Source of the DNA: Thermodesulfobacteriota bacterium
Lineage (GTDB): Bacteria > Desulfobacterota > BSN033 > UBA1163
DNA length: 64,000 nucleotides
Direction: 5' to 3'
Assembly (NCBI GenBank): GCA_041947025.1
Contig: JBHGBJ010000006.1
Span: forward strand, 5,995-69,994
The translations under genes were made by a program, and so were the position numbers. The notes under the pieces were generated by a model that did no database searches, was not told the origin of the DNA, and was given only the letters and a program-made list of their open reading frames with translations. Below are positions 1 to 42,637 of this stretch, in pieces. Every line of letters starts with the position of its first letter. Positions within the stretch are counted from its first letter, which is position 1.

Positions 1-607
1 GGATGGAGATAAAGTCCGATTCCCTCAGGACGGTATCGAAGCCTTTCAGTTCAATTCCCTCAGGAGCCTTTTCAAGATAGGGATCGAAGGCGATCACCCG
101 GACGCCAAAAACAGAAATTCTTCTTGCGACTTCGAGACCGATCTTTCCACATCCGATCAAGCCCAATGTTTTCCCCTTGGTTCTGTAGATGGGAATCCCC
201 AATCGAAAATCCCACTGGCCGGCCTTCACCTTCTTATCAAAAAAGGCAGTCTTTCGGATCAATCCGAGGATCATCGAGAGGGCCTGGTTTGTAACCTCAT
301 CGATACAGTAGTCCGGCACATTGGCAACGACAATTCCTAAGTCCGTAGCTGCCTTGAGATCGACCGAGTCGACCCCGACCCCGTAACGAGAGATCGCCTT
401 ACATTTCGGAAGATTTTCAAGAACCCTCCGGGTCAAGAGCGCATACTGATTTATAAGCCCGTCCGCATCCCGGCATGCTGAGATCAGGTCTTTCTCCTCC
501 TGCAGCTGTGCCAGTATGATCTCAGCACCTATACGGCCAAGCTCCTCCTTCTCTTCTTCGATGGAGCCATGATCGCAATCGGTGATCACCACCCGATATT
601 GTCCCAT
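1..607 (-). CDS. D-isomer-specific 2-hydroxyacid dehydrogenase (NAD-binding; CtBP/PGDH-like); 5' part only, 3' end off window
   Basis: Minus-strand translation from ATG at 607 (RBS GGAGAGGAGAGG upstream) gives MGQYRVVITDCDHGSIEEEKEELGRIGAEII...GLIGCGKIGLEVARR...VIAFDPY, the typical catalytic/NAD-binding architecture of D-2-hydroxyacid dehydrogenases. Not in ORF track because truncated by window edge. Confidence 0.7.
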   Translation of the reverse strand, partial: MGQYRVVITDCDHGSIEEEKEELGRIGAEIILAQLQEEKDLISACRDADGLINQYALLTRRVLENLPKCKAISRYGVGVDSVDLKAATDLGIVVANVPDYCIDEVTNQALSMILGLIRKTAFFDKKVKAGQWDFRLGIPIYRTKGKTLGLIGCGKIGLEVARRISVFGVRVIAFDPYLEKAPEGIELKGFDTVLRESDFISI

Positions 608-629
608 CCTCTCCTCTCCTCTCTTATCT

Positions 630-1664
630 TTAAGGGATCAGAATCACCTTGGCCGCTTGAAGGTTCTCCAAAAGATGAAAGGCCTCTTCCCACTTTTCAA
701 GGGGAAGCTTGTGGGTGATCAGCTTTTCCGCAGGAAGGAGTCCTTTCGAGATGAGGCCGATCGTCTTCTCCCATGCCGTCCAACTACTGGAGTAACAGAA
801 GTCATAACGAAGGGCTTTGAAAATACCCCGATCGTAAGGGATCGGAACCTCTTCCTTTCCTGAAATTCCAATCGCACAGATCCTGCCCAATCTCCTCACG
901 ATCTCGAAAGCCTGGTAGATGGCCTTTCCGCCTCCTGAGGTCTCGATCAGGATGTCCACTCCTAAGCCATCCGTCATCTCCAAGACTTTCTGTACAGGAT
1001 CCACTTGATCGACATTGATGGTGAAATCGGCTCCCAGTTCCCTTGCTTTTTCAAACCGCACTCCCTCATCCGAGCTCCTTCCGGATACCCCGACCATTCT
1101 CACTCCGGCCGCCTTCGCGATGGCAAGGGAGATGAGGCCAATGGGACCGGGTCCGGTGATGAGGACGGACTCTCCTGCCTGGAGTTGGGCGCGTTCGAGG
1201 ACCGAGGTGACGCAGATCGCAATGGGTTCAATCACGGCACCCACCTCAAAGGGAATATTGGCCGGAAGACGATGGAGGAGTCGGGCAGGACCTGCGACAT
1301 ATTTTGTGTAGGCGCCGTTGATCCCGATGCCATAGGCCCTTTTCTGCTCGCAGACCTGGGGAAAGCCACTCTGACAGGTATAACAGAGGCCGCAGGATCC
1401 GGTGCGGGTCTCGGTCACGATCCGGTCACCCCTCTTCCATCCCTTCACCTCTTTTCCAACATCGATAACGATGCCAGAGAATTCGTGGCCCAGGACGACA
1501 GGAGGCCAGTAAGGATGACTGTCGTGATAGATATGAAGGTCGCTTCCACAGACCGAGACAGCCTTCACCTCGATCAAGACTTCGTCTTCCTTGATTTTGG
1601 GTTCGGGAACCTCCCGAATTTCAATCAACCCCTTTCCCTTTGCGTACTTTACGACGGCTTTCAT
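630..1664 (-). CDS. Zn-dependent alcohol dehydrogenase, MDR family (sorbitol/L-idonate/threonine dehydrogenase-like)
   Basis: MKAVVKYAKGKGLIEIREVPEP...GHEFSGIVIDVG...TGSCGLCYTCQSG...LITGPGPIGL: catalytic Zn GHE, structural Zn Cys cluster, GxGxxG Rossmann. Start moved to ATG 1664 (GGAGG RBS); ORF-track 5' extension to 1877 has no support. Confidence 0.8.
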   Translation of the reverse strand: MKAVVKYAKGKGLIEIREVPEPKIKEDEVLIEVKAVSVCGSDLHIYHDSHPYWPPVVLGHEFSGIVIDVGKEVKGWKRGDRIVTETRTGSCGLCYTCQSGFPQVCEQKRAYGIGINGAYTKYVAGPARLLHRLPANIPFEVGAVIEPIAICVTSVLERAQLQAGESVLITGPGPIGLISLAIAKAAGVRMVGVSGRSSDEGVRFEKARELGADFTINVDQVDPVQKVLEMTDGLGVDILIETSGGGKAIYQAFEIVRRLGRICAIGISGKEEVPIPYDRGIFKALRYDFCYSSSWTAWEKTIGLISKGLLPAEKLITHKLPLEKWEEAFHLLENLQAAKVILIP

Positions 1665-1752
1665 TTTTAAACCTCCGGATGGTAACGCCCTCGTTGACTG
1701 GGAGCGTTTGTAGGGTATCCATACCTTCACACGCCGGCACTCAATGCCGACG

Positions 1753-3033
1753 CTATAGTTTCTTCTGATGCGATAGGATGGGAAGTATTTCCCCGCCTCT
1801 TTGAAGCACTGCCACCTTTGCCCGGGAGCCCATGAGTGAGAAGGCGATCTCCAATGCCTCTTGCGGGCCACGGGCATAAATGAAACCTAATCTCTCGGTC
1901 TCCTTTTTCCCTATTCCCCGTGAAACCATGATTCCCCGCGCCCTTTCCTTGATCACCCTCCCCACGTGGACGAGATGGGCAGCTACCGTTAACTTGTTAA
2001 CAAGACCCTTCTGGAGTTTTTCTTCAGCCTCTCTGAAGGTTTGGTATCCAAATTCGAGGACTTCCGGATGACTGGGAGAGATCCCCTCCGGACAAGTGGT
2101 CACGAGGATCACCACGCCTCCCTGCTTGACTGCCAATTCGGCCGCATAAATCCCTTTGGCTGCCAGCCATAGCTCTGAGTCATAGGGATGGGAATCGGCG
2201 ATGACAATATCCGCCTCCTGAGGGAGTGCAGATTGATAAATCTGACGGGAGCGGATTGCACCGGCCCGATAGGCACGGATGGGGTTTCCTGCTACCACTT
2301 CGATCAGCCTGCCGGACCCATCCTGAATCGTATTGACGATCCACTTTAAGCCAACTTTCTCGGCGACCCTTTCGATCTCCTCTTTCACAGGGTTTTCAAT
2401 CTTTCCCAATATTTCCCGCCCGGGAAACTGTGCGCTGAGCCAATGGGTCCTTCCTGTCGTCTCCTCGCCACAGATTCCAGGCTGAATAATATTTCCTCCT
2501 CCGCTGAATCCGGAGACCCGATGGGGAACGATCTGCCCCACGCCAATAATGAAACTGGCCTCTTCGACCATTCGATTGACAAAGATGGGAGTGCCTCTCT
2601 CTGTCTCTCCCCATTTCATCAACTGGGAGGAATCCCACCAGTGGTGATTGGAGATGGAGTATCGTTTGGGAATTTCCTCTCCGAATTTTCTCCCGATCTC
2701 CTCTTCCGTCATCGGCCGATGGGTTCCGAGGGCCACGAGAATCTTGATGTGGCTCGGTTCGATGCCGGCTCCGCCCAATTCCCTTAATAATCGAGGAAGA
2801 ATCTTCTGGACAGGAGTAGTCCTCGTATAGTCATCCACCGCAATCAATATGGTCTCATGCTTTTTAAGCAGGAAAGGCAAAGGGTCGGAGCCGAGGGGAT
2901 GGGCAAAAGCCTTTTCGACGATCTGCTCCTCATCTTCTTCAGCGTCAACGGAGGTTGGAGAAAAGATTCCGAGGAGGTTCTTTTCCGGGATCTCCATTGG
3001 TATTATTTCAGGATAGGGAAACGAGATACGCAT
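1753..3033 (-). CDS. LarA-family nickel-pincer-dependent alpha-hydroxyacid racemase/epimerase (DUF2088 N-domain)
   Basis: MRISFPYPEIIPMEIPEKNLLG...LIAVDDYTRTTP...ILVALGTHRPMTEEE...VPHRVSGFSGGGN matches the LarA N-terminal (DUF2088) signature and length (~425 aa). ORF-track start 3057 is a TTG without RBS; ATG at 3033 aligns with LarA N-termini (start uncertain). Confidence 0.7.
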   Translation of the reverse strand: MRISFPYPEIIPMEIPEKNLLGIFSPTSVDAEEDEEQIVEKAFAHPLGSDPLPFLLKKHETILIAVDDYTRTTPVQKILPRLLRELGGAGIEPSHIKILVALGTHRPMTEEEIGRKFGEEIPKRYSISNHHWWDSSQLMKWGETERGTPIFVNRMVEEASFIIGVGQIVPHRVSGFSGGGNIIQPGICGEETTGRTHWLSAQFPGREILGKIENPVKEEIERVAEKVGLKWIVNTIQDGSGRLIEVVAGNPIRAYRAGAIRSRQIYQSALPQEADIVIADSHPYDSELWLAAKGIYAAELAVKQGGVVILVTTCPEGISPSHPEVLEFGYQTFREAEEKLQKGLVNKLTVAAHLVHVGRVIKERARGIMVSRGIGKKETERLGFIYARGPQEALEIAFSLMGSRAKVAVLQRGGEILPILSHQKKL

Positions 3034-3142
3034 AATAACTCGATGATCATTGGTCAATGGTCAGAATTCAATGTTATTCTTCGTTTCTTACTGCTTTCGG
3101 CTCACTGCTTACTGATGACTGATCGCTGATTACTGGTTACTA

Positions 3143-3793
3143 TTATTTACCTCGTGCTTCCCGGATGGCCTTAAGAAAAGCGCGGGTGTTCTCGGTGATC
3201 ACATGAAACTTCTTTTCCTTGAGGGCTTTCTTATCGACCAACTCTCCTCCCACACCAAGAGCGGCTACTCCAGCCTTGACAAAGTCGCCTGCATTCTGGA
3301 GATTGACTCCTCCTGTAGGAACGAGAAGAATCTGTGGAAGAGGGGCCCGGACCGCCTTGATATATTCCGGCCCTCCTAATTGAGCAGCAGGAAAAACCTT
3401 GACCATGTCCGCTCCTGCATTCCAGGCGGTCAGGATCTCAGTAGGGGTCATCGCTCCCGGAATGACCACGACGCCATAGCGGTGTGCGAGGCGGATGAGA
3501 TCCAGATTGAGAGTAGGACTCACAATGAATTGGGCGCCGGCGAGGAGTGCAGCCCTTCCTGTCTCAGGATCGAGGACAGTTCCTGCACCCATGACAATCT
3601 CATCCTTATATTTCTGAGTCAGCTCCTTTATCACGTCAATGGCCCCTTGAACACTCATTGTGATTTCGATAAAGGTCACCCCTCCCGTTTTAACCGCATC
3701 CGCCACATCCATCGCTTCCTGAGCAGTGGAGACCCGAATGACAGGGATCAATCCTTCGGAGATCATCCGGTTGAACACTTCCCGTTTTTCCAT
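3143..3793 (-). CDS. eda: 2-dehydro-3-deoxyphosphogluconate / 4-hydroxy-2-oxoglutarate aldolase
   Basis: 216 aa; ...[33 protein letters not shown]...VMGAGTVLD...GAQFIVSP... typical KDPG aldolase motifs incl. Schiff-base Lys region (MVKVFPA). Confidence 0.85.
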
Positions 3794-3873
3794 GCGACCC
3801 TCCTGTTTCTTTCCTTTTCGATTACCGTTTCACGATTTAGAAATCGCAAACTGCAAATCGCAAATCGTCAGAG

Positions 3874-4860
3874 CTATCTCGATATCCTTAACCCCACTCC
3901 CTTGAGCTGGGCCTCGACCTCTTCCAAGGTGGACCAGTTGAAGTCCGTGGGCACGGTGTGCTTAAGGGCGGCAAAGGCGTTTCCGTACTGGACGCCTTTT
4001 TGAACGTCTTTTTCCTTCAGCCAGGCATAGAGAAATCCGGCAGTAAAGGAGTCTCCTGCCCCCACCCTGTCCACAATCTCAACGTCGTACTTCCTGTCTT
4101 TGAAAATCTTTCCATCCTGGTAGGCAATGGCTGTCCAGTTGTTCCTCCAAACCGAAAGGTCTTCTCTTAGCGTGATCGCTACTACTTTCAATTTGAAGGT
4201 CTGGGCAAGCTTCGTCGCTGCAGCCTCATAGTCTTTCTCCTTGATTCCAAAAACCACATTGGTATCTTCCTCGGTTGTGATCAGGATGTCAACGTCGGCC
4301 ATCATCGGTTCTTGAATCTTCTTGGCCTCAGCGGGCGTCCAGAGTTTCTTACGGTAATTAAGGTCGTAAGAGACGCTGCATCCTGCTTCTTTCGCTGCCT
4401 TTAGGGCTTGCGCGGTGACCTCTGCTGCCGATGAGCTCAGGGCAGGGGTGATGCCGCTCATATGGAAATGCTTTGACCCGGCGAAGACCCTTGTCCAATC
4501 GACCTCACCGGGTTTGATCATGCTGATCGAGGAACCCGCCCTGTCATAGAGGACACTCGAAGCACGGGGCGATGCGCCGAGCTCTAAGAAGTAGAGGCCA
4601 GCCCTTCCTTGGTCAGACCAGACAATGTGGGAGCAATCGACTCCAAGCCCCCGGGCACGGTCACGGATAAAATAACCAAGAGGATTCTTAGGGAGCTTAG
4701 AAACCCAGGCACTCTTCAGTCCCAAACGGCTCACGCCAACAGCCACATTGAGTTCGGCTCCGCCAGCACTGACATCGAGACTATGAGTCTGCTCCAACCT
4801 CAAAAAATGAGGAGGTGAAAGCCTTACCATTGCTTCTCCAAAAGTGACAACGTCGTACAT
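3874..4860 (-). CDS. kdgK: 2-dehydro-3-deoxygluconokinase (PfkB family sugar kinase)
   Basis: 328 aa; N-terminal VVTFGEAMVRL, C-terminal DRVGAGDSFTAGFLYA (PfkB signature 2); immediately downstream of KduD-like/IclR and upstream of eda. Confidence 0.8.
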   Translation of the reverse strand: MYDVVTFGEAMVRLSPPHFLRLEQTHSLDVSAGGAELNVAVGVSRLGLKSAWVSKLPKNPLGYFIRDRARGLGVDCSHIVWSDQGRAGLYFLELGASPRASSVLYDRAGSSISMIKPGEVDWTRVFAGSKHFHMSGITPALSSSAAEVTAQALKAAKEAGCSVSYDLNYRKKLWTPAEAKKIQEPMMADVDILITTEEDTNVVFGIKEKDYEAAATKLAQTFKLKVVAITLREDLSVWRNNWTAIAYQDGKIFKDRKYDVEIVDRVGAGDSFTAGFLYAWLKEKDVQKGVQYGNAFAALKHTVPTDFNWSTLEEVEAQLKGVGLRISR

Positions 4861-4861
4861 C

Positions 4862-5524
4862 TTATTCTCCTTTTCTCAGTTCTATACGCATCCCTTTTTC
4901 TGCGGATGCATAGGCCGCGTAAATCACCTCCACCACATCCCTTGCCAAATCGATTCCGGAAACAGGCTCCCGGTCCAATAGAACCGCATCGATGAAATCC
5001 TCCAATTCCTGAGGAAACCCTTTCATCCAGTCATCGTCGGGGCTGGGAAAGTTCCAGCCCGCCTTCGTTTCGAGCCTCTCCGCGATATATTCCTCTCCAA
5101 AGATAGGAGGTTCGGGTGCATAAACCTCCAAAACGTCGTGAGGATTGATCTTGACATATACCACCGAATTCGATAGGAAGACGCTGAGGAGATTTCTCAC
5201 CCCTCCCAAAACGGTGTCCGAAGCGAAGACGGTTGCGTTTGAACCGTCTTCGCCAGCCTCTGCAGCATCGATGGAGAACTTCCCATGGAGATCGGTCGGG
5301 ACACACAGATCGACAATATCGATGTCAGGCCGCTCAAGGATGCGGCGATAGTCGTCATAGGAGTGTGGGATATTGAATTTCTTTGCGAAGGACTCGGCAT
5401 TCTCTTTCTTTTGAGATGCCACCTCAACGACATCCACCTTTAAGCCTCTCAGCTTCGAAAGATTGCTGAGGTGAAGGCTGGCAGCAACTTTCGAACCGAC
5501 GATTCCAAGCCTCACTTTATCCAT
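4862..5524 (-). CDS. Gfo/Idh/MocA-like oxidoreductase, apparently internally deleted (220 aa)
   Basis: N-terminus MDKVRLGIVGSKVAASLHLSNLSKLRGLKVDVVEVASQ...IVDLCVPTDLH is a Gfo/Idh/MocA Rossmann start; C-terminus ...ARDVVEVIYAAYASAEKGMRIEL is the typical family ending; ~120 aa of the usual middle (EKP.. catalytic region) is missing. Confidence 0.45.
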   Translation of the reverse strand: MDKVRLGIVGSKVAASLHLSNLSKLRGLKVDVVEVASQKKENAESFAKKFNIPHSYDDYRRILERPDIDIVDLCVPTDLHGKFSIDAAEAGEDGSNATVFASDTVLGGVRNLLSVFLSNSVVYVKINPHDVLEVYAPEPPIFGEEYIAERLETKAGWNFPSPDDDWMKGFPQELEDFIDAVLLDREPVSGIDLARDVVEVIYAAYASAEKGMRIELRKGE

Positions 5525-5828
5525 CTCTCTTGGACCCCTTCTCTCCGATCACTTCATATACCTGAACCGTGCTCTCGGTATAGAGGGCCTTGATCTTAGG
5601 TGAGAGGGTTTTATGGTCTGGTGAATCCCTCCAAGCAGCAGCCGTCTCGAGGGATTGAAACCGGATCACCATCTGGTAAACAGATCCTTTCCCCTGTTCT
5701 TTGAGGAGCGACACCGAGACGAATCCAGGCTGTCTTGACATGGCCACACTATAAACTTCTTTAAACAGGGCTTCAAACTCCTTCTCCTTGCCAGGAATGA
5801 CATTATAGGTAACATGCCTTTCGATCAT
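5517..5828 (-). CDS. antibiotic-biosynthesis-monooxygenase (ABM/Dabb) domain protein
   Basis: 103 aa; MIERHVTYNVIPGKEKEFEALFKEV...FVSVSLLKEQ...YQMVIRFQSLETAAAWRDSPDHK: ferredoxin-like ABM fold pattern. Overlaps downstream gene start by 8 bp. Confidence 0.55.
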   Translation of the reverse strand: MIERHVTYNVIPGKEKEFEALFKEVYSVAMSRQPGFVSVSLLKEQGKGSVYQMVIRFQSLETAAAWRDSPDHKTLSPKIKALYTESTVQVYEVIGEKGSKRDG

Positions 5829-5903
5829 TATCTAAGTCTCCTTCCCCCCTCACCTTTCCCCTCTCCCCACTGGGGAGAGGGAAGGGTGAGGGGAAATTTC
5901 GCT

Positions 5904-7010
5904 TCATATTTTCTCCAAAATGGCTGGTCGAACAAATGAAATCCCCTCAACGATCATGGAAAGTGTAGGGTAGAGAATTGGATGTGTAATCATCACCGGT
6001 CCTCTCGGGGTGGCGAGGATCGTATCCTCCGATTTCGTTCCTGTGATTGAGGGGTTCCAGGTGAAGGCCTGATTCTCCTGGATGACATCAGGGGTTTTCA
6101 AATGGGTCCGGTAATCCCTACCCGTATACCCGATTGAACCGCCCTGGTGATGGAGTTTCCATTCCTCTGGATATCCCTTTTCTTGATAAGCATCGATCCC
6201 TTTCTGGAAGACCTCCCTTGCGGGCATTCCAGGACGGGTGTGAGCCATAAAGGTGCAATCAATCCAGACATTCGCTTCGTACTTTCTACTCAGTTCTTCG
6301 GGTATCTTCCCGAAGTGGACAAATCGAGTGAGTGAGACGATAAGACCCCACTTCCGGGCGTTGACAGAAACCATGAGATACTTCTCAACCCTTCTTTCCG
6401 TGGGAATGGGGTGGCGAAAATTAGAGACACGATCATCCGCGGCAGCCATCAAGGTAATGGGATCGATTCTGTCTTTCCAGATCTCATTACAGAGCCTTCC
6501 CACAACTTCTGATTCCTTTTCTCCTATCTTCGTTTCAATCAGTGTCTTCTCCAGCGCCCGAGAGACCTTCTCTCCCAACCAGCGATATCGCTCCTGTTCT
6601 TCGGGTGTTAAGGAGTAACGGAGCTTCGCAATCCCTTCCGTCGATAGGACCGCGTCTTTGAACGGGACATCACATCCCAAAGGTCCATCTCCCGCAAGTT
6701 CTTTAACCACGGAGGCTTCTTGTTCTTCATACCAGGGATAGGTTTTGATGATAAAATCCTGTTTCTCCAAACCCTCTTCTTCGATCATGCGAGGGGTTTC
6801 GATATTGTTTGAGATGACAAATTTGGAATCCTTTGTAATGAGAAGGGAGGTGGCCCCAAGCTCTGTAGTAATTCCAACAAGATTGAGGCCACCGCAGGTC
6901 ATCCATGAAAAGTTGGCCTGGCGCTTAAGAAGAAGAGCTTTCAGGCCCGTTGTCTTGAGAAACTCTCTTACTCTCCGTTCCTTTTCCCTGATCTCGTCGG
7001 CGATTGCCAT
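5904..7010 (-). CDS. M24-family metallopeptidase (creatinase/prolidase-type N-domain + pita-bread domain)
   Basis: Start set to ATG 7010 (RBS GGAGAAGGAGAGAGG); MAIADEIREKERRVREFLKTTGLKALLL... (creatinase_N-like), C-terminal HHQGGSIGY...E-rich metal-ligand region typical of M24. Confidence 0.6.
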   Translation of the reverse strand: MAIADEIREKERRVREFLKTTGLKALLLKRQANFSWMTCGGLNLVGITTELGATSLLITKDSKFVISNNIETPRMIEEEGLEKQDFIIKTYPWYEEQEASVVKELAGDGPLGCDVPFKDAVLSTEGIAKLRYSLTPEEQERYRWLGEKVSRALEKTLIETKIGEKESEVVGRLCNEIWKDRIDPITLMAAADDRVSNFRHPIPTERRVEKYLMVSVNARKWGLIVSLTRFVHFGKIPEELSRKYEANVWIDCTFMAHTRPGMPAREVFQKGIDAYQEKGYPEEWKLHHQGGSIGYTGRDYRTHLKTPDVIQENQAFTWNPSITGTKSEDTILATPRGPVMITHPILYPTLSMIVEGISFVRPAILEKI

Positions 7011-7024
7011 CCTCTCTCCTTCTC

Positions 7025-8008
7025 CTATTGTGCAAGCACATCCGGCCAGGTCGTCACCGACCATTGTGTTTTGAACAACTCGTCGACAGCCGGTTTAGCC
7101 TTCTCTCTGAAGGAATTAGCGTCCGGAATGATTACCTGCATCAGTTTTCGTTGGAGATCCACCAGAATGGCGGCCTCGCCTGTCTTGATCTTGTTGTTGG
7201 CCCACTCCTCCGCCTGTTTACCGGCCTTGGCGATAAGATCCTGATCTGCCTTGGATAGCTTGTCGAAGAAAGGCTTGTAGATCAGGATTCCCCCGGTCTG
7301 CACAAGATGATTGGTGATGATTAAATGACTTTGTACCTCGTTAAGTTTGAAGGATTGGATCTGTGGCAGGTCGCCTTCGGAGGCATCAGCCTTACCCGAC
7401 TTGAGCGAGTTATAGAGTTCGGGCAAAGGAACCCCAACGGGGTCGGTGCCGATCGCCTTCCAGACAGCCATCCAAGTAGGTATATTGGGTAGCCGGAGTT
7501 TCAAGTTATAAGCATCGGCAGGCGTGTAGAGAGGTTTCTTCGATGTCGTCTGCCGCAGCCCCCGGTAGATGGTCGCCAGGTGCTTTAGGTCGTTTTTCTC
7601 TAATTGTGCCAGCGCCTCCTTGCCGAGTTTCCCATTCCAAACCCGCATGTAATGTTCGAAGTCTTTCATCACGTAGGGGCCGGTGAAGAAATAGTACGGA
7701 GGGGCGTAATCCTGCAGGAACCAGGTTCCGTTGGACTGCATCTCGATCTCCCCAGCCCTGTTCGCCTTACAAATGGCCTCTTCTGATTTGGTGCCTGCGT
7801 CGATTAGCACCTCGAACCGGCCGCCACTCCCCTTCTCAACTGCTTCCTTGAACCTCTCCGCCGCATCAACAAGAATATTGCCTTTTGGAAATGGGCTGGC
7901 GATACGAATCGTTTTTTCAGCTGAGATTACATTGGCTCCACCAACGAAGATGAAGCACAAGAATGCAATTATTGAGAGAACAATAGCCAATTTTGGAGTT
8001 CTCATCAT
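7025..8008 (-). CDS. TRAP transporter substrate-binding protein, DctP family (solitary)
   Basis: 327 aa with signal peptide (MMRTPKLAIVLSIIAFLCFIFVGGANV), DctP-like body; no dctQM immediately adjacent (sits next to tctCBA). Confidence 0.7.
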   Translation of the reverse strand: MMRTPKLAIVLSIIAFLCFIFVGGANVISAEKTIRIASPFPKGNILVDAAERFKEAVEKGSGGRFEVLIDAGTKSEEAICKANRAGEIEMQSNGTWFLQDYAPPYYFFTGPYVMKDFEHYMRVWNGKLGKEALAQLEKNDLKHLATIYRGLRQTTSKKPLYTPADAYNLKLRLPNIPTWMAVWKAIGTDPVGVPLPELYNSLKSGKADASEGDLPQIQSFKLNEVQSHLIITNHLVQTGGILIYKPFFDKLSKADQDLIAKAGKQAEEWANNKIKTGEAAILVDLQRKLMQVIIPDANSFREKAKPAVDELFKTQWSVTTWPDVLAQ

Positions 8009-8090
8009 CTTACCCTCCTTTCTAAGAGATTGTTTCCTCCGTATTTAATCCGGGGTCCCAAGGGCGCGCTTAGAGGTCTTAGAAAACGCG

Positions 8091-9041
8091 TCATTTTTTG
8101 ATCTCCCTGACCAGTTTGCCATAATACTCATCGTCACTGTCCATCAACTTCCCAAAAGCCTCTGGGCCAAGGTATGAGAGGTTTACAACCATGTCCTTTG
8201 CATTTTTCTGAAATACCGGATCATCCATTCCTTTTTTGAAGGCATCATGAAGTTTTTTAATCACATCCGGTGGAGTGCCTTTGGATGAGGCTAATCCCCT
8301 CCATTGCCCCATGGTAAAATCCACCCCCTGTTCCTTCACGGTTAGAACATCAGGGAAAAGCTCAAATCGCTTTTCGGCGAAGAGAGCGATGATCTTCAAC
8401 TTCCCTGCCTTCACATGCTCGATCCCTTCGGGTGGTGAGACTGTGACAGCATTGACATGGCCTCCGAGGAGGGCGGTTACGGACGGACCTCCGCCAGAAA
8501 ATGGGATATGGTTGAATTTCACACCGGCTGTCTTTTCAAAAGCAAGGGCGATCAGATGAACTCCTCCGCCCGCACCTGAGTTCCCCACGGTGATCATCTC
8601 AGGGTTCTTTTTGGCATAATCCAAAAACTCCTTGAGACTTTTCCATGGGGCATCCGCCCTCACCAGAAACATCCCTGGGTCCTTCACCACATTGATGACG
8701 GGATCAAAACTCTTGTAGGTGAAGGAAGTCTTCACCTGATGCGGAAGTATGGTGAGGGGCGTAATCGCAGAAACAAGGGTGTAACCATCTGGTTTTGCCT
8801 GAGCAACTTCGGTATATCCTACCGCTCCTGCTCCCCCTGGCTTGTTCACCACAACCACTGCCTTTCCAAGGTATTTTCCTGTTGTCGCAGCCAGAGCCCG
8901 AAAGATCAGGTCTGTTGCGCCTCCTGCTGCCCAGGGGATGATGATCTGGACTTCCTTGGCCGGGAACTCAGCGGCCTGGATTGACACGCTCCCTGAGAAA
9001 ATTAGAATTGCAAATAATCCGATGATCGTTTTTTTCAACAT
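8091..9041 (-). CDS. tctC: tripartite tricarboxylate transporter substrate-binding protein (Bug/TctC family)
   Basis: 316 aa, signal peptide, ...IIIPWAAGGATDLIFRALAA...KPGGAGAVGY... TctC hallmark. Confidence 0.8.
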   Translation of the reverse strand: MLKKTIIGLFAILIFSGSVSIQAAEFPAKEVQIIIPWAAGGATDLIFRALAATTGKYLGKAVVVVNKPGGAGAVGYTEVAQAKPDGYTLVSAITPLTILPHQVKTSFTYKSFDPVINVVKDPGMFLVRADAPWKSLKEFLDYAKKNPEMITVGNSGAGGGVHLIALAFEKTAGVKFNHIPFSGGGPSVTALLGGHVNAVTVSPPEGIEHVKAGKLKIIALFAEKRFELFPDVLTVKEQGVDFTMGQWRGLASSKGTPPDVIKKLHDAFKKGMDDPVFQKNAKDMVVNLSYLGPEAFGKLMDSDDEYYGKLVREIKK

Positions 9042-9128
9042 GGTGTTCCCTCCTTTCTTAACTTTGAACCATGAACGATGAATGACAAGCCTTAATCCCT
9101 CCTTTACTGTCTTACTCCGAACTCCGAA

Positions 9129-10640
9129 CTAAAACCTCCCTCCTTTCTTAGATGTTTTGATAATGATTCGAACCAATGGGATGAGTAGAAAGATGACAGT
9201 CGCAAGAAGAAAGACCATGGAGACAGGTCGATTGATAAAGATCCCAAAGTCGCCGTGGGAGATCATCAGGGATTGACGGAAGGCCACCTCCAATTTCGGG
9301 CCGAGGACTAATGCCAAGAGTAGTGGAGCAGCCTCGTAAGCCCATTTTCTCATCAAAAATCCGAGACCCCCGAAGAGAAGCATCATCCAGATATCGAAAA
9401 CGGAATTATTCACGGTGTACATCCCCGTGATGCAGAAAAGGATGACGAGAGGCAAGAGGATCTTCTTGGGAATTCTCAGGATGTTGGCAAAGAGAGGAAC
9501 AAAGGGAAGATTAAGAATCAGGAGGATAAAGTTGCCGATATACATGCTGGCGATCACGCCCCAGAAGAGTTCTGGGTGTTGCCCAATTAACAACGGACCA
9601 GGATTGACTCCGTGGATGAGAAGGGCACCCAGAAGAATAGCCGTTGGAGGAGCGAAAGGGATTCCAAGGACAAAGAGGGGAATGAAGGCAGATTGGCAGG
9701 CAGAGTTATTGGCCGATTCAGGACCGGCCACTCCCTCTATCGCCCCTTTGCCAAATTCCTCCGGCTTCTTGGAAATCTTTCTTTCAACCATATAAGAGGA
9801 GTAGGTTGCAATGACAGGAGCAGGCCCCGGTATAAGACCGATCCCGAATCCGATTCCCGAACCTCTCAGAATGGGGCCGATGGATCTCCTGACATCCTGA
9901 AGGGTAGGATAAAGTTCTCTCAAACGGGGTACGAGAACATGTTGTTCCAACATCTCCAATGGCTGATCGACATTGAGTAAGACTTCTCCAATCCCGAAGA
10001 GTCCGATGGCCACAGCCACGAATTCAATCCCTCCCAAAAGCGAGATGGAGCCAAAGGTCAACCGGGCATCTCCGGTCACCGGATCGATTCCGATGGTCCC
10101 GATGATCAAACCGATGACTGCCATCATGAGGGATTTGGTGAGGGATGTCCCTGTGACATTACTCAAGACAATAAACCCAAAGACCATCAGAGAAAAATAT
10201 TCCGGGGGACCAAAGGCGAGTGCTGCCTCTGCCAAGGGCGGGGCCAAGAAAACCAATCCAAATATTCCAATCGTTCCTGCGATGAAAGAACCAATAGCAC
10301 AGGTGGCAAGGGCCGGGCCGGCCCTTCCTTTCTGGGCCATTTGATAGCCATCGATGCAGGTAATCACCGAAGCGGTTTCGCCAGGGACGTTGAGGAGAAT
10401 AGAGGTTGTAGAGCCCCCATACATCGCCCCGTAATAGATTCCAGCAAGCATGATGATCGCAGAGGTGGGATTGAGACCAAAGGTGGCTGGGATGAGGAGG
10501 GCGATCCCGGCGATCGGCCCGAGCCCAGGGAGAACGCCGATCAATGTCCCGACAATGGCGCCAATCAAGCAATAGAGAAGGTTCTGAATCGTCGTAGCGA
10601 TCCCAAAACCGTTGAGAAGATGCTGAAATGATTCAAACAT
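9129..10640 (-). CDS. tctA: tripartite tricarboxylate transporter large permease
   Basis: ~503 aa polytopic membrane protein; MFESFQHLLNGFGIATTIQNLLYCLIGAIVGTLIGVLPGLGP... TctA signature. Start set to ATG 10640, 26 bp after tctB stop; ORF-track extension would overlap tctB. Confidence 0.85.
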   Translation of the reverse strand: MFESFQHLLNGFGIATTIQNLLYCLIGAIVGTLIGVLPGLGPIAGIALLIPATFGLNPTSAIIMLAGIYYGAMYGGSTTSILLNVPGETASVITCIDGYQMAQKGRAGPALATCAIGSFIAGTIGIFGLVFLAPPLAEAALAFGPPEYFSLMVFGFIVLSNVTGTSLTKSLMMAVIGLIIGTIGIDPVTGDARLTFGSISLLGGIEFVAVAIGLFGIGEVLLNVDQPLEMLEQHVLVPRLRELYPTLQDVRRSIGPILRGSGIGFGIGLIPGPAPVIATYSSYMVERKISKKPEEFGKGAIEGVAGPESANNSACQSAFIPLFVLGIPFAPPTAILLGALLIHGVNPGPLLIGQHPELFWGVIASMYIGNFILLILNLPFVPLFANILRIPKKILLPLVILFCITGMYTVNNSVFDIWMMLLFGGLGFLMRKWAYEAAPLLLALVLGPKLEVAFRQSLMISHGDFGIFINRPVSMVFLLATVIFLLIPLVRIIIKTSKKGGRF

Positions 10641-10666
10641 CGATCTATTCTCACCCACAAAACATT

Positions 10667-11134
10667 CTAAATCCCAATCCACCCCTTGGGGAGAGGAATT
10701 TTGAGCCACTGAACGAATAGAAAATAACAAGCCAAGGCGGTCAGAAGGGACAGAAGAAGATTGAAGGACCATCGCTTCGTCCCAAGGATTCTCAGGAGGC
10801 CGACCATGAGAAGAAAGGAGACGACCGGGTATCCCAGACGGTTTAAAAAGAGGGTCGCCAATACCATCATTCCGAAAAAGAGAATCATCTGTTTTGTGGA
10901 TCCAGAAATCTCTGGGATGGGAACTTTTTTCTCAACCCTCTTCTTGTCGAGGGAGAGCTGAAGCAAAAAGATCCCGGACAAAACCATCAGGAGCATGCCG
11001 AGAATGAGAGGAAAGAAGCCGGTCCCCGATTTACGGAATGTTCCAATGGGCATTCTTAGAGAGAGAAGGGTTGTAATCGCTCCAAAGACAAGGACCACAA
11101 CTCCCCCAATCATTTCGTCCCTTTTCAATTGCAT
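10667..11134 (-). CDS. tctB: tripartite tricarboxylate transporter small permease
   Basis: 155 aa, 4 predicted TM helices, positioned immediately upstream of tctA. Confidence 0.65.
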   Translation of the reverse strand: MQLKRDEMIGGVVVLVFGAITTLLSLRMPIGTFRKSGTGFFPLILGMLLMVLSGIFLLQLSLDKKRVEKKVPIPEISGSTKQMILFFGMMVLATLFLNRLGYPVVSFLLMVGLLRILGTKRWSFNLLLSLLTALACYFLFVQWLKIPLPKGWIGI

Positions 11135-11183
11135 TCCCTTTCAGGTTGTAACTGCTAACTGATCATTGCCAATCGATTATTTT

Positions 11184-11927
11184 TCAGTCCATCCATGCTC
11201 CACCGTTTACATCAAGGATCTCACCGGTGATAAAGGAAGCTTCTTCAGAGACCAAAAAGAGTACAGCATTGGCGACGTCTTGCGGATTTCCGAGGCGGCC
11301 GAGAGGAATGGAGGCAATGATTTCCCTTCTCCTCTCCTCTGACCACTGGGCACTCATCTCTGTTTCAATGGCATGAGGGGATACCGCATTGACGTTGATC
11401 CCATTTCGAGCCAATTGTCGTGCAAGAGTTTTAGTCAAAGCATCCACGCCAGCCTTCGAGGGTCCATATCCAGGAGCTGAGGTGATATCTCCCATCTTTC
11501 CCGCAATCGAAGATACATTGACAATCTTCCCATAACCTTGCTGCTTCATGATCCCTGCCACAGCCTTACAACAGTTAAACGTCCCTTTCAGATTTACTTC
11601 GATGACCCGATCCCAATCCTCTTCTGTCACGGTATCGATCGTCCCCCTTCTGATGATCCCGGCATTGTTGACGAGAATGTCAACGCGACCAAAGGTTTTT
11701 TGAACCTGGTTCACCATGGCCGTCACTTCAACACTTTTTGTGATATCACAAGGGATGATGATCGCTCCCCTGGTGTCTTTGGCGCCGCTCCCAGCGGCCT
11801 CCAATGATCCTATATCCACATCGACGAGGGCGACCTTTGCCCCTTCCCTCATGAAGACGAGTGCGATGGCTCGTCCAATACCCTTTGCAGCTCCGGTGAC
11901 GATGGCCGCTCGATCCTTTAATCTCAT
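11184..11927 (-). CDS. SDR-family oxidoreductase (KduD / 2-deoxy-D-gluconate 3-dehydrogenase-like)
   Basis: Start at ATG 11927 (GGAG RBS); MRLKDRAAIVTGAAKGIGRAIA (TGxxxGxG), NNAG, catalytic YxxxK (YGPSKAG). Confidence 0.8.
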   Translation of the reverse strand: MRLKDRAAIVTGAAKGIGRAIALVFMREGAKVALVDVDIGSLEAAGSGAKDTRGAIIIPCDITKSVEVTAMVNQVQKTFGRVDILVNNAGIIRRGTIDTVTEEDWDRVIEVNLKGTFNCCKAVAGIMKQQGYGKIVNVSSIAGKMGDITSAPGYGPSKAGVDALTKTLARQLARNGINVNAVSPHAIETEMSAQWSEERRREIIASIPLGRLGNPQDVANAVLFLVSEEASFITGEILDVNGGAWMD

Positions 11928-11978
11928 TGGTTTACTCCAAACCATCAACTTTGGACAATGAACGATGAACTCTAAATT

Positions 11979-12830
11979 CTAAACTCTCAACTCTAAACCC
12001 CCGGGCTTGTGTCCGTTCCTTTTTCGAAATCCAAGCCTCTGGGAGATTTTGGACGCAGTCTCCATAACCTCCTTCTTTAAAGATTCTTGAATGATCTTTT
12101 TCGTCACTCGAAAAGCCGGGCCGGAAATGCTAATAGCAGCCACCACTCGGGAAGCCTCATTAAAAATGGGAGCAGCCACGCATCGGATCCCTCTTTCATT
12201 CTCCTCGTCATCGATAGCAAATCCTTGTTTCCTTACAAACCTTAGGTGTTCTCTCAATTGGACGGGGTCGGTCATGGTGTTTTCAGTTCTTCTCATGAGA
12301 TTTTTCCCCTCCAAGAACTGGTCGAGGACCTCATCGGAGAAATCGGCCAAAAGCACCTTCCCTACGGCACAACTGTGGATTGGGTTCCGAAGGCCAACCC
12401 GGGAGGCCATCCTTAAGCCCCCTGGGTTTTGATCGACCTCGACTTTATCAATGTAAACCACCTCATCTCGATCCATGACAACCATATGGACGGTCTCATT
12501 CGTTCGTTTGACAAGATCCCTGAGAAAGGGCTCGGCCTCTTTTCGGAGGTCGAGTTGGCCGAGAAGAAGGTTTCCGAGTTCGACCAGCTTAAAGCCCAAA
12601 AAATAATCCCTGGTCTTAGAGTCTTGTCTCACATAACCGAAGTGGAGGAGGGAGGAGAGGAGACGATGGATCGTGCCCTTGGGGAGATTGACTCTGGAAG
12701 AGAGTTCGCGGATGCTTATCCCTTGGGGACTCTGTCCAAGGATGTCGAGGATCTGGGATGCCCTTTCAATCGTCTGAACAAGATTTTGAGACTTAGAATT
12801 TCGAACCTGATTTCTGTCCGTATTATTCAT
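11979..12830 (-). CDS. IclR-family transcriptional regulator (KdgR-like)
   Basis: N-terminal wHTH (LVQTIERASQILDILG...GISIRELSSRVNLPKGTIHRLL) + C-terminal IclR effector domain; located inside sugar-acid island. Confidence 0.8.
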   Translation of the reverse strand: MNNTDRNQVRNSKSQNLVQTIERASQILDILGQSPQGISIRELSSRVNLPKGTIHRLLSSLLHFGYVRQDSKTRDYFLGFKLVELGNLLLGQLDLRKEAEPFLRDLVKRTNETVHMVVMDRDEVVYIDKVEVDQNPGGLRMASRVGLRNPIHSCAVGKVLLADFSDEVLDQFLEGKNLMRRTENTMTDPVQLREHLRFVRKQGFAIDDEENERGIRCVAAPIFNEASRVVAAISISGPAFRVTKKIIQESLKKEVMETASKISQRLGFRKRNGHKPGGLELRV

Positions 12831-12871
12831 TCGCCACTTTCCCATGCAAGAGGATCTTTAACAAGTTAACC

Positions 12872-14158
12872 TCACTCAATCCCAAATGTCAGATTCGGGA
12901 GCCATAAAGCGAGATCCGGCCAGAAAATAACCAAGAGCACCACCACGATAACAGACAGCATAAACAGCCAACCTTCCTTGACAAAATCCCAGAGAGAGCA
13001 TTTGAAGATCGTACAGACAATATAAAGGACCGCTCCCTCCGGCGGGGTCAATAATCCGACGGTGAGAGTCAGTACCATAATGATCCCGAAGTGCACCAGA
13101 TCGACATGGACTTGCTCGGCGATCGGAGTAAGAATTGAGGTCAACATCAGGATTAACACAGTCGAGTCCATCGCCGTCCCGGCAAAGAGTAAAAATCCGA
13201 TAATGATCAGCATGACCATCCAAGGAATATTGGAAATCCCCAGCATGAACTCGGCCATCCTTTGCGGTATTTGATCCCAGATAATGCCGTAACTGAAGGT
13301 TGCCGACAACGCGATCAGGATCATGACCATCCCGATATCGACTACAGTGTTCTCCAGGGTTTGAAGCAATCCTTTCCAGGAGAAGCGTTTATAGACGACC
13401 ACTCCCACCACAACGGCATAGACACACGCGAAAGCACCTGCTTCGGACGGAGTAAACATGCCGAACCTTAATCCGGCAATCAGAATGACCGGGAAAAGAA
13501 AAGCCCAGATGCAATCGACGAAAGTTCTCGCCACCTCTTTGAAAGGTGCCCTTTTTTCTCTCTCTGGAAGATAACCTTTTTGCCTGGCCCTCAAGCCAAC
13601 CGCAACCATCAAGAATATCGTCATTAAAATACCGGGAATCATCCCAGCAGCAAATAACCGTCCGATAGAAACTTCGGCGATGCTGCCATATAAAACCAAT
13701 CCGATACCAGGGGGGATCATCGTCGTGATGAGTGAGCTGCAACCAATGACAGCCGCCGAGAACCCTCCGGAATATCCCTTCTTGATCATGCCCGGCCCCA
13801 GCACGCGCGAGAGCATCGCGGCGTCACCGATCGCCGAACTCGTAATCCCGCCCAGAGATGCAGCGATCACCATGTTGCTCTGTGCCATCCCGGCGCGCAT
13901 ATGTCCCGTGAGAACCGACGCCAGCTTCATGACCCGTTCGGTAATACCGGTCTCGTTAAGCAAGTTGCCGGCGAAAATGAACAATGGAATTGCCAGGAGA
14001 AGAAAATTTTGTGTTTGAGAAAGCACTTGCTGAACAGGCATGGTCAATGGCAAGGTTGGATGTAGAAGAAAGAAGGCCACTCCGGAGATACCAAAGGCAA
14101 AGGGGACAGGCATTCCCATTAACATAAAGAGAAAAAAGAGAATTGTTACTAAGGTCAC
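12872..14158 (-). CDS. dctM: TRAP transporter large permease
   Basis: Polytopic membrane protein, DctM pattern; start set to GTG 14158, 7 nt after GGGAGG (ORF-track TTG 14173 lies inside the RBS). Confidence 0.85.
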   Translation of the reverse strand: MTLVTILFFLFMLMGMPVPFAFGISGVAFFLLHPTLPLTMPVQQVLSQTQNFLLLAIPLFIFAGNLLNETGITERVMKLASVLTGHMRAGMAQSNMVIAASLGGITSSAIGDAAMLSRVLGPGMIKKGYSGGFSAAVIGCSSLITTMIPPGIGLVLYGSIAEVSIGRLFAAGMIPGILMTIFLMVAVGLRARQKGYLPEREKRAPFKEVARTFVDCIWAFLFPVILIAGLRFGMFTPSEAGAFACVYAVVVGVVVYKRFSWKGLLQTLENTVVDIGMVMILIALSATFSYGIIWDQIPQRMAEFMLGISNIPWMVMLIIIGFLLFAGTAMDSTVLILMLTSILTPIAEQVHVDLVHFGIIMVLTLTVGLLTPPEGAVLYIVCTIFKCSLWDFVKEGWLFMLSVIVVVLLVIFWPDLALWLPNLTFGIE

Positions 14159-14198
14159 TCTATAACCTCCCAACTGTCCGCACGAATGGGTATTCTAT

Positions 14199-14717
14199 TC
14201 AGATGATTTCACCGCTGACGCCTTCTGCACGTGTCTCGATGGATTCACCCGTCGATATCGCTCGCACGAAAGTCTTGATTTTCAAAACCGCGGTGATCAA
14301 CATTAGAGCACAACCAAACGGCACACTCAGCGTAACCCACGTATAACTGAAACCCGGGATCCCCTGAAAGCTTCTCAACCGCGTCGTGTAGGAAAGCCAT
14401 GAGCCATATCCGATCATGCCTACTAAGAAGAGAGCAATGATCGAATAATTAATAAGTTTGAGATAGAGCTGCGCTTTCTGTGAGAGTTTACCCGTAATCA
14501 CTTCGATGCAGAATAGTCTATCCAATCGCATCGCGGCATCGGCGCCTAAGAAAACCGTCCAGGCAAAGAGAAATGTTGCCACATCCATGGCCCAATTTAT
14601 GGGGTGATATAAAAAACGTCCTACAGCCGCAGCAAATACCAATAACGAAAGAATTCCCAACGCACATTGGGCGATGAGTATCTCTTTCTTACAGATAAAC
14701 TCGTACATTTTCTTCAT
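14199..14717 (-). CDS. dctQ: TRAP transporter small permease
   Basis: 172 aa, 4 TM, directly upstream of dctM. Confidence 0.75.
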   Translation of the reverse strand: MKKMYEFICKKEILIAQCALGILSLLVFAAAVGRFLYHPINWAMDVATFLFAWTVFLGADAAMRLDRLFCIEVITGKLSQKAQLYLKLINYSIIALFLVGMIGYGSWLSYTTRLRSFQGIPGFSYTWVTLSVPFGCALMLITAVLKIKTFVRAISTGESIETRAEGVSGEII

Positions 14718-14751
14718 GGGCCAGGACCTCCACCCACTGCAATCCCGAAAT

Positions 14752-14790
14752 CCCTGTCCCTGCCGCCTGCTTCCGGCAGGCAGGGAAGTT
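14752..14790. repeat. REP-like GC-rich palindromic element (CCTGCC..CCGGCAGGCAGG) between dctP and dctQ
   Basis: tccctgtccctgccgcctgcttccggcaggcagggaag; member of a family recurring at 30967, 34399, 34463, 42638, 55366, 61815. Confidence 0.6.
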
Positions 14791-14850
14791 GGTGCTTCTG
14801 GGCTTGAACTGATCCCACCTCCGGAGATGGGACCAGTTCATGCACTATTC

Positions 14851-15861: not shown

Positions 15862-15948
15862 ACAGACCCTCCTTTTCATCCTTGTTTCGTATTTCTCTAA
15901 CCTTGAAATTCAACTCGGAACTCATCACCTTCAGTTCTTAACTCCCCA

Positions 15949-15983
15949 CTCCGAACTCCGAACTCCGAACTCCGAACTCCGAA
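15949..15983. repeat. heptanucleotide microsatellite (CTCCGAA)x5, ~90-120 nt upstream of dctP start
   Basis: ctccgaactccgaactccgaactccgaactccgaa; 2-copy version at 9114-9127 upstream of tctC, inverted copies at 48088-48132. Confidence 0.8.
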
Positions 15984-21045: not shown

Positions 21046-21143
21046 GAGTCAGCTGAACCAGAGTTTTTTTAGATACCCCGTCCGTAATCCCCCTTGGCCC
21101 CCCTTTATAGAAAGGGAAGGGTGTGTGGGGGGATTTTTGAACT

Positions 21144-41479: not shown

Positions 41480-41483
41480 AGGA

Positions 41484-42563: not shown

Positions 42564-42637
42564 ATTACCGGGGAATGGATTCGAGTGTTTGGGCGGGAAA
42601 GGGCAATGCGAGGAGATATTCAACGACAATTTCCAAA

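Follow-up and report, generated by a model that had tools for sequence, protein, structure and literature searches.

A LarA-superfamily protein with asparagine at the position of the cofactor-tethering lysine, encoded in a conserved sugar-acid gene context of Thermodesulfobacteriota

Which reaction can be expected of a homologue of the nickel-dependent lactate racemase LarA that is encoded among genes for sugar-acid breakdown and that lacks the lysine to which the cofactor is attached in LarA? This question is raised by a gene in a stretch of 64,000 nucleotides from a Thermodesulfobacteriota bacterium (contig JBHGBJ010000006.1, positions 5,995 to 69,994; the whole stretch is referred to below as the window). 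The gene occupies window positions 1753..3033 on the minus strand and encodes a LarA homologue (LarAH) of 426 amino acids in an intact frame, from an ATG at 3033 to a stop codon at 1753-1755. In the source annotations (NCBI and JGI) the protein and its homologues are named 'nickel-dependent lactate racemase', and this label is almost certainly wrong, because LarAH lies on an uncharacterised branch of the superfamily, has lost the tether lysine and has genes of sugar-acid breakdown as its neighbours. As judged from its sequence and gene context, LarAH is somewhat more probably than otherwise an enzyme that epimerises a C6 sugar acid at C2; it would be loaded non-covalently with nickel-pincer nucleotide (NPN) as its cofactor and would feed a route of the 2-keto-3-deoxygluconate (KDG) type.

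The two-domain architecture of the LarA/DUF2088 superfamily is present in LarAH, with Lar_N (PF09861, E = 2.1e-56, residues 11-200) and LarA_C (PF21113, E = 4.1e-11, residues 272-413) both scoring above their gathering scores, and the top relatives of solved structure are the malate racemase Mar2 (6d6z, 8e-57), the broad-spectrum LarA of Isosphaera pallida (LarA_Ip; 9eid, 3e-46) and Lactiplantibacillus plantarum (L. plantarum) LarA (5huq, 1e-39). The Pfam domains, the structural matches and the neighbouring genes uphold the original prediction, which placed a LarA-superfamily gene here within a sugar-acid island of the KDG type. The NCBI product (P0001) has 414 residues, as its start is set 12 codons further downstream than the conserved N-terminus; the 426-residue start, with which the Logan gene call agrees, is preferred because the N-terminus from Met1 is conserved, the first 12 residues being kept in the homologues with the consensus MRISFPYPE, in which I3, P6 and Y7 are invariant. 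More than 120 homologues are 73-100% identical to LarAH, which is a member of an uncharacterised and mostly metagenomic LarA subfamily with hosts among Thermodesulfobacteriota, Syntrophaceae and 'Deltaproteobacteria' metagenome-assembled genomes.

The active site was compared by aligning LarAH with a LarA carrying the L. plantarum residue numbering, which is used throughout for LarA positions, as well as with Mar2, LarA_Ip and 120 close homologues. MAFFT misaligned the C-terminal signature against Pediococcus LarA, and this part was therefore read from pairwise HMMER alignments with Mar2 and with LarA_Ip. As listed in Table 1, the full proton-coupled hydride-transfer machinery of LarA is kept (H105, H171, H197, D68, R71 and K293), including the counterparts of Asp72 and Arg75, which in LarA bind the ribose and the phosphate of NPN as well as the carboxylate of the substrate. 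The most unusual feature of LarAH, which was absent from the original prediction, is the replacement of the tether lysine by asparagine together with that of Gln295 by leucine or valine. Gln295 and Lys298 bind the substrate carboxylate, the role of Gln295 being taken from the LarA_Ip-lactate structure; of these two ligands the Lys298 equivalent is kept in all 120 homologues and Gln295 is replaced in all 120 by Leu, Val or Ile.

The tether lysine is kept in every structure-solved or characterised LarAH checked, namely LarA, Mar2, GntE2, LarA_Ip, LarA_Sp and LarA_Bw. When 1.8 billion proteins are represented by clusters at 50% identity, about 140 of the 150 representatives nearest to LarAH have lysine at position 184 and most have glutamine at 295; the exceptions include the clade of LarAH itself (P0136), a representative with T/V at these positions that is 48% identical (P0121) and a few others with T, A, D or E. 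No LarAH clade that is entirely without the tether lysine was found described in the papers examined. A second Lys-less clade was nevertheless met among the related loci, in which K184 is replaced by Thr or Ser and Q295 is kept (L057, L059, L060, L064, L076 and L080; for example L059:185-4107). The subfamily of LarAH, this second clade and the sisters that keep the lysine are referred to below as the Asn type, the Thr/Ser type and the Lys type, respectively. The Asn type is further distinguished by K217 (Arg elsewhere), by W231 and Y255 and by S286. At position 217 (NPV-K-EE, window 2383..2385), which neighbours the published pocket position I220 of LarA, lysine is found in all Asn-type proteins and arginine in 97% of the Lys type and 100% of the Thr/Ser type; the Arg-to-Lys exchange at this position, considered as a compensation for the lost tether, can be no general requirement, because the Thr/Ser type is Lys-less and keeps the arginine.

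An untethered nickel-pincer cofactor has precedents. The LarA of Thermoanaerobacterium thermosaccharolyticum loses its non-covalently bound NPN during purification, and a 2026 paper describes LarA homologues that use the cofactor covalently or non-covalently, as well as an ornithine cyclodeaminase that uses a dinucleotide form non-covalently. LarAH differs from these proteins, which bind NPN or the dinucleotide NPAD non-covalently, in that the loss of the tether lysine is not reported for a characterised LarA homologue in the literature examined, whereas the family in the window has lost it.

The functional class of LarAH was assessed with six LarA-type equivalog models of NCBIfam that have curated cut-offs, and its score is below the cut-off of all six: 294.7 bits for the malate racemase (MAR) model LarAH6 (NF052593, cut-off 500), 257.5 for LarAH10 (540), 253.8 for LarA (NF033504, Ni_dep_LarA, 460), 242.1 for the MAR model LarAH5 (NF052595, 462), 103.8 for the Group 18 hexonate model (NF052594, 500) and 73 for LarAH14/15/16 (740). 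According to Urdiain-Arraiza et al., positions 175, 176, 358 and 359 predict the substrate class of a LarAH, the signatures being F,F,W,E/Q for lactate racemases (LAR), E,V,A,H for gluconate/hexonate epimerases (GntE), Y,F,H/Q,T for 2-hydroxyglutarate racemases (HGR), H/Q,K at the last two positions for MAR and F/Y at 358 for hydrophobic-hydroxyacid racemases (HHR). The Asn type has R,V,H,L in 120 of 120 proteins, which matches none of the five published classes: the histidine of MAR is present at 358 and the lysine at 359 is replaced by leucine, only the valine at 176 agrees with GntE, and neither the HGR nor the HHR signature is seen. In a rough neighbour-joining tree the Asn type forms one tight clade within a large, star-like radiation of LarAHs of the form 'RV.K.Q.H[LIM]', and Mar2, LarA_Ip and LarA fall outside this radiation. 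The model score and the pocket residues agree with the original prediction that LarAH is no lactate racemase in the strict sense.

The nearest described relatives are those of Group 23 of Desguin et al. (2020), in whose Dataset S2 the motifs PHRV...GFSGG and AAHLVHVGRV were found in Amico_1664 from Aminobacterium colombiense and Anamo_1826 from Anaerobaculum mobile. These two proteins are 46.6% and 43.5% identical to LarAH, and the identity to Mar2, Pediococcus claussenii (P. claussenii) LarA and LarA_Ip is 31-32%. The Synergistetes members of Group 23 share with LarAH the R,V loop after the second catalytic histidine, the tryptophan at 294 and, with little variation, the AAH(L/I)xHVGRV motif, whereas they keep K184 (in GGGK or GGAK) and Q295 (in LWQAAKG), where the window family has N184 and L/V295. 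Group 23, which is itself heterogeneous, is listed by Desguin et al. as of unknown function, with no conserved gene neighbours and no associated COG, in contrast to the fixed gene order around LarAH described below. The best solved relative, Mar2 (LarAH6, about 32-33% identity), belongs to the same two-domain fold family and the D,R,H,H,H,K set is conserved between the two, although Mar2 has the K181 tether and H-K at 358/359 for the second carboxylate of its substrate, where LarAH has Asn and H-L. GntE1 and GntE2 (LarAH19/20) and the putative hexonate epimerases of Group 18 can be regarded as functional analogues, since they are found in uronate/hexonate clusters feeding the KDG route, together with genes for short-chain dehydrogenases/reductases (SDRs), ribokinase-family kinases, KduI and glucuronate isomerase, but they are distant in sequence, carry the signature E,V,A,H and keep K184. 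LarA of L. plantarum shares with LarAH the superfamily, the pair of catalytic histidines, the nickel-binding His200 and the presumed proton-coupled hydride-transfer mechanism, and differs in that its NPN is covalently bound on K184, which is impossible in LarAH, in its F,F,W,T pocket and in its operon with larBCE. LarAH can be assigned to the superfamily by predicted fold and catalytic residues, but it lacks one classical hallmark, the Lys tether, and falls outside every functionally assigned family.

The gene context was compared in nine loci of close relatives and 80 metagenome loci, the latter obtained with a profile of the sister clade, and the loci were annotated by BLAST with the window proteins; the sample contains 49 Asn-type and 27 Lys-type sister loci, and the counts of direct neighbours are restricted to loci with enough flanking sequence. 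The order PfkB kinase, 2-keto-3-deoxy-6-phosphogluconate (KDPG) aldolase (Eda), LarAH, Zn-dependent alcohol dehydrogenase (Zn-ADH) and 2-hydroxyacid dehydrogenase (2-HADH) is found in most of the 49 Asn-type loci, and the PfkB and Eda proteins are 78-92% identical across most of them. Eda is encoded directly upstream of LarAH in 33 of 36 Asn-type loci and 0 of 23 loci of the Lys-type sisters, and the pair PfkB-Eda in 23 of 29 and 0 of 21, respectively; directly downstream, Zn-ADH is found in 25 of 32 versus 0 of 21 and the pair ZnADH-2HADH in 20 of 26 versus 0 of 18. The 2-HADH alone, counted anywhere in the locus, is present in 24 of the 49 Asn-type and 10 of the 27 Lys-type loci, and no other association across the entire clade is as widespread as its pairing with LarAH. 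The sugar-acid context of LarAH is conserved over about 50 loci and is not a chance arrangement of one window.

Upstream of this core the Asn-type loci have one of two alternative modules, M24-like-(ABM)-GFO or GFO - Zn-ADH-like - FAD_binding_2 - OYE, the former of which recurs in L001, L004, L006, L009 and many metagenome loci. Within a subgroup of 61-65% identity the place of PfkB is taken by a KduI/IolB isomerase, and KduI/IolB is found in 9 of the 49 Asn-type loci. In the Thr/Ser-type clade KduI/IolB lies directly upstream of LarAH in six of eight loci inspected and LarAH is usually followed by a transporter of the major facilitator superfamily; one of these loci (L057) has two xylose-isomerase-like TIM-barrel genes upstream. 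Several Lys-keeping sisters adjoin tripartite ATP-independent periplasmic (TRAP) transporters, 2-HADH, PfkB, Eda, DgoK and dehydratases of the enolase superfamily and of the IlvD/Edd family. Both Lys-less clades are linked to KduI/IolB and the Lys-keeping sisters to dehydratases. Clusters of the order TRAP - LarAH - 2HADH - PfkB - Eda with Lys-keeping sister LarAHs (47-49% identical) were seen at L040:4921-11962, L068:1945-13198 and L018:2002-8762; they also contain enolase-superfamily and IlvD/Edd dehydratases, DgoK and proteins of the YhcH/YjgK and FAA-hydrolase families, and look like uncharacterised aldonate pathways.

Taken together with the established mechanism of LarA, this context makes the following course of events the most likely one. 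NPN supplied by unlinked larBCE genes would bind to LarAH non-covalently; one histidine would deprotonate the C2 hydroxyl group while the C2 hydride passes to C4 of the NPN pyridinium, and return of the hydride to the opposite face, with reprotonation by the other histidine, would leave C2 inverted. The substrate may be a six-carbon sugar acid imported by the TRAP system or the tripartite tricarboxylate transporter (TTT), and may belong to the hexonates, 5-keto-hexonates or 3-deoxy-hexonates tied to the uronate/KDG pathway. The adjacent redox steps, performed by the D-specific 2-HADH and the Zn-ADH, would lead to a 2-keto-3-deoxy acid, which PfkB would phosphorylate and the aldolase would cleave to pyruvate and glyceraldehyde-3-phosphate. 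A search for literature linking LarA or DUF2088 to KDG, KduI or KdgK returned no relevant paper. There is a weak indication that the substrate is already deoxygenated or is derived from a uronate, for instance a 5-keto-hexonate, or a 3-deoxy-hexonate whose epimerisation is followed by oxidation at C2 to give KDG, because the Asn-type loci never contain a dehydratase and often contain KduI; a plain hexonate 2-epimerase with its dehydratase encoded elsewhere would fit equally well.

Several points have to be set against an epimerase of this kind. A dehydratase of the enolase superfamily or the IlvD/Edd family was found in 0 of the 49 Asn-type loci, although a plain hexonate would need such an enzyme to reach KDG. 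Since the tether lysine and one carboxylate ligand are missing, the loading of the cofactor or the type of substrate could differ from the canonical case. An AlphaFold2 model of LarAH, calculated from a shallow alignment of 33 sequences (72-82% identical), reached a mean predicted local distance difference test score (pLDDT) of 58.9, with the active-site loops below 50, and was too poor for an inspection of the pocket. The genes larB, larC and larE were not found in about 80 kb of contiguous sequence, composed of the window and two Logan contigs that extend it (L091 and L092, found by exact look-ups of the Zn-ADH and of a radical-SAM protein, whereas that of P0001 gave no contig), and homologues were not detected in 90 related loci with the L. 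plantarum proteins as queries.

For the window itself, the Pfam scan of its 47 open reading frames (ORFs) gave no AIRC, LarC or PP-loop match and a tblastn search with LarB, LarC1, LarC2 and LarE of L. plantarum (plasmid NZ_CP055122) gave no hit at E<=1e-3, both scans confirming the earlier statement that larB, larC and larE are absent from it; they are also absent from the 10 kb beyond its right end that are covered by L092. The weight that was placed on this absence is misplaced, because the genes for cofactor biosynthesis are normally unlinked: in the group of true lactate racemases itself, larB or larC is found at a distance of up to three genes for only 33-42% of the members. A gene for nicotinate phosphoribosyltransferase (L092:14588-16174) lies about 3.5-5 kb past the right edge of the window, with no lar genes alongside. 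This enzyme makes the pool of nicotinic acid mononucleotide and nicotinic acid adenine dinucleotide (NaMN/NaAD) precursors from which NPN is built, and the gene most likely serves ordinary NAD salvage.

The alternatives to a sugar-acid epimerase differ in which of these features they account for. That LarAH is a true lactate racemase, as annotated, is very improbable: all of the catalytic residues are present, but the score against the LarA model is far below its cut-off, the identity to P. claussenii LarA, which belongs to the lactate-racemase Group 1 of Desguin et al., is 31%, the LAR signature is replaced by R,V,H,L, and no lactate-utilisation genes are found nearby, the conserved neighbours encoding a KDG-kinase-like protein and a KDPG aldolase instead. 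A racemase of malate or another dicarboxylic 2-hydroxyacid, imported by the TTT system and DctP, with the aldolase acting on 4-hydroxy-2-oxoglutarate (KHG), would agree with Mar2 as the best structural match and MAR LarAH6 as the best model, with Arg172 as a possible ligand of a second carboxylate, with the di- and tricarboxylates typically carried by TTT and DctP transporters and with the ability of the aldolase family to cleave KHG as well. It is nevertheless unlikely, as the score is well under the MAR cut-off, Lys359, the proposed ligand for malate's second carboxylate, is Leu in 120 of 120 proteins and the strictly conserved KDG-kinase-like PfkB beside the aldolase is left unexplained. 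Quite unlikely, too, is the racemisation of a small hydroxyacid on the product side, such as glycerate, with the D-specific 2-HADH working as a D-glycerate/hydroxypyruvate reductase downstream of the aldolase. The wide occurrence of the LarAH-2HADH pair and the resemblance of the 2-HADH to glyoxylate and hydroxypyruvate reductases speak for it, and some LarAHs prefer glycerate, but the enzymes known to act on glycerate are members of the LAR group whose pocket reads F,F,W,Q, where LarAH has an arginine and two histidines, and the sister genes adjoin aldonate dehydratases.

An inactive relic that is unable to hold the cofactor would be in keeping with the missing lysine and with the lack of larBCE nearby, but is hardly credible for a protein with an intact reading frame, with more than 120 homologues at 73-100% identity in which the catalytic and nickel-binding residues are invariant, and with an operon position that is fixed in about 50 loci from different environments. 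Nickel-pincer chemistry other than epimerisation, for instance a ketol or hydride-shift isomerisation that acts on a keto-deoxy acid of the KduI type, or the use of another untethered form of the cofactor such as the dinucleotide NPAD, is an unlikely option. The joint loss of the lysine and Gln295, the link of both Lys-less clades to KduI/IolB where the Lys-keeping sisters are linked to dehydratases, and the 49 Asn-type loci lacking a dehydratase are all consistent with it, and the literature notes that hydride chemistry of other kinds may be performed by LarAHs with altered sites and that another enzyme makes non-covalent use of NPAD; against it, the pair of catalytic histidines, which only a proton transfer on two faces requires, is invariant. 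More tentatively, and with a probability that we consider low, the Asn type and, in parallel, the Thr/Ser type may carry a nickel-pincer cofactor that is never tethered, be it NPN or a variant like NPAD, and may perform the key stereochemical or hydride-shift step of an undescribed, dehydratase-free route from a uronate-derived or 3-deoxy C6 acid to KDG/KDPG in anaerobic Thermodesulfobacteriota. The reading that we prefer is that of a non-covalently loaded enzyme by which a C6 sugar acid is epimerised at C2.

The genes that surround LarAH in the window are listed in Table 1 together with the codons of its active site. They are all on the minus strand and, from position 15879 down to position 2, follow the order DctP-DctQ-DctM, IclR, SDR, TctB-TctA-TctC, second DctP, M24-like, ABM, GFO/IDH/MocA, PfkB, aldolase, LarAH, Zn-ADH and 2-HADH.

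Table 1. Active-site codons of LarAH and neighbouring genes, in window coordinates.
Feature	Position	Strand	Evidence or conservation
Asp68...Arg71 (= Asp72, Arg75)	2821..2832	-	120/120 each
His105 (= catalytic His108)	2719..2721	-	120/120 homologues
His171 (= catalytic His174), Arg172 (= F175), Val173 (= F176)	2515..2523	-	H 119/120, R 120/120, V 120/120
Asn181 (codon AAT), at LarA K184 tether position	2491..2493	-	Gapless motif alignment PHRVSGFSGGGN vs SHFFAGFSGGRK; Asn in 120/120 homologues
His197 (= Ni-coordinating His200)	2443..2445	-	120/120 homologues
Trp289-Leu290...Lys293 (= Tyr294, Gln295, Lys298)	2155..2169	-	W 120/120; L 110, V 9, I 1; K 120/120
His353-Leu354-Val-His356 (= positions W358, T359 and an extra invariant His)	1966..1977	-	H, L, H each 120/120
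D-isomer-specific 2-hydroxyacid dehydrogenase	2..607, clipped by window edge	-	Pfam 2-Hacid_dh, 2-Hacid_dh_C; full gene 328 aa in L091
Zn-dependent alcohol dehydrogenase, TDH/IolM/polyol-DH-like, directly downstream of LarAH	630..1664	-	Pfam ADH_N, ADH_zinc_N, Glu_dehyd_C
KDPG/KHG aldolase (Eda), directly upstream of LarAH	3143..3793	-	Pfam Aldolase 6e-46; NF005119 239.4 vs cut-off 238, passes
PfkB kinase, KDG/KDGal-kinase-like	3874..4860	-	Pfam PfkB 4e-45
GFO/IDH/MocA oxidoreductase	4862..5524	-	Pfam; internal deletion
ABM protein	5517..5828	-	Pfam
M24-like protein	5904..7064	-	Pfam; no NCBIfam match, only weak PDB matches to prolidases
Extra orphan DctP	7025..8008	-	Pfam
TTT transporter TctCBA	8091..11134	-	Pfam
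SDR	11184..11948	-	Best model FabG; KduD equivalog 186.6 vs cut-off 338.9
IclR regulator	11979..12845	-	Nearest BhcR and KdgR models, under cut-off
TRAP transporter DctPQM	12872..15879	-	Pfam

Of the neighbours named in the original prediction, the Zn-ADH, the D-2-hydroxyacid dehydrogenase, Eda, PfkB (as a KdgK-like kinase), IclR and the two tripartite transporters were recovered, and the description of the SDR as 'KduD-like' is more specific than its model scores allow, the SDR being a generic one. PfkB scores 395.6 bits with the kinase half of a KHG/KDPG aldolase-kinase fusion and 318.5 with KDG_KDGal_kin_Halo, under the cut-off of 440; the Zn-ADH scores 252.7 with tdh (cut-off 458) and 218.5 with IolM (cut-off 450); and for the orthologue of the 2-HADH in L002 the nearest models are those of PGDH and glyoxylate reductase, both under cut-off. 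A pathway of the myo-inositol type was considered and not adopted, because the IolG-, IolM-, IolC- and IolB-like scores are all far under their cut-offs. The GFO/IDH/MocA gene encodes 220 residues, of which 1-90 match residues 1-90, and 92-218 match residues 269-395, of the 395-residue orthologue in L006; the in-frame deletion of about 178 central residues is also present in the independent Logan assembly L091, and the gene is probably an inactive remnant. Contig L091 (run SRR29307520) is identical to window positions 1..7202 and extends about 6 kb (5.9 kb) past the left edge, where a glyoxalase, a third TRAP set (DctP, DctM and DctQ), a KduI/IolB-family isomerase (5.7 kb beyond the left end) and a second IclR regulator are encoded (L091:7601-13057). 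The phrase 'KDG-type sugar-acid island' is apt because of these additions. Scans of window positions 1..16500 for promoter and terminator consensus sequences gave matches at chance level (14 versus 13.9 expected and 22 versus 18.1 expected), and an Rfam scan of the window gave no match.

The rest of the window contains a dcw cell-division cluster and unrelated genes. At 20122..22088 on the minus strand, a second kinase of the PfkB family, ribokinase-like in character, and an inosine-uridine nucleoside hydrolase form a separate nucleoside-salvage pair that is unrelated to the KDG-like kinase. Among the long ORFs without a Pfam match, that of 421 residues at 17249..18514 on the plus strand, between panB and a BKACE gene, is a conserved gene because an equally long ORF is found at the corresponding place in L005 (609-1874). 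Another, at 57380..58435 on the minus strand, has 351 residues (328 in L092) and adjoins genes for SH3-domain and zinc-ribbon membrane proteins. Two more on the minus strand are probably spurious: that at 41415..42686 takes up the interval from murF to murD, in which a plus-strand mraY would be expected, and that at 63018..63998 overlaps a plus-strand aldehyde dehydrogenase gene that runs off the window (L092:11140-12633).

In conclusion, this study describes a LarAH subfamily in which the active site is Lys-less, an unremarked natural variant within a superfamily whose diversity and non-covalent use of the cofactor were already known. About half of the LarA superfamily is without a predicted substrate, and the Asn type, which is abundant in sediment and groundwater metagenomes, is uniformly and almost certainly wrongly annotated as lactate racemase. 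Its fixed operon narrows the search for the substrate to C6 sugar acids, and the module of KDG kinase, KDPG aldolase, LarAH, Zn-ADH and 2-HADH without a dehydratase suggests a variant of acid-sugar catabolism in anaerobic sulfate-reducer and syntroph lineages. The family also offers a natural test of the need for the covalent Lys-NPN tether in the LarA fold and, if the proposed function is true, a new reaction would join the short list of nickel-pincer enzyme activities.

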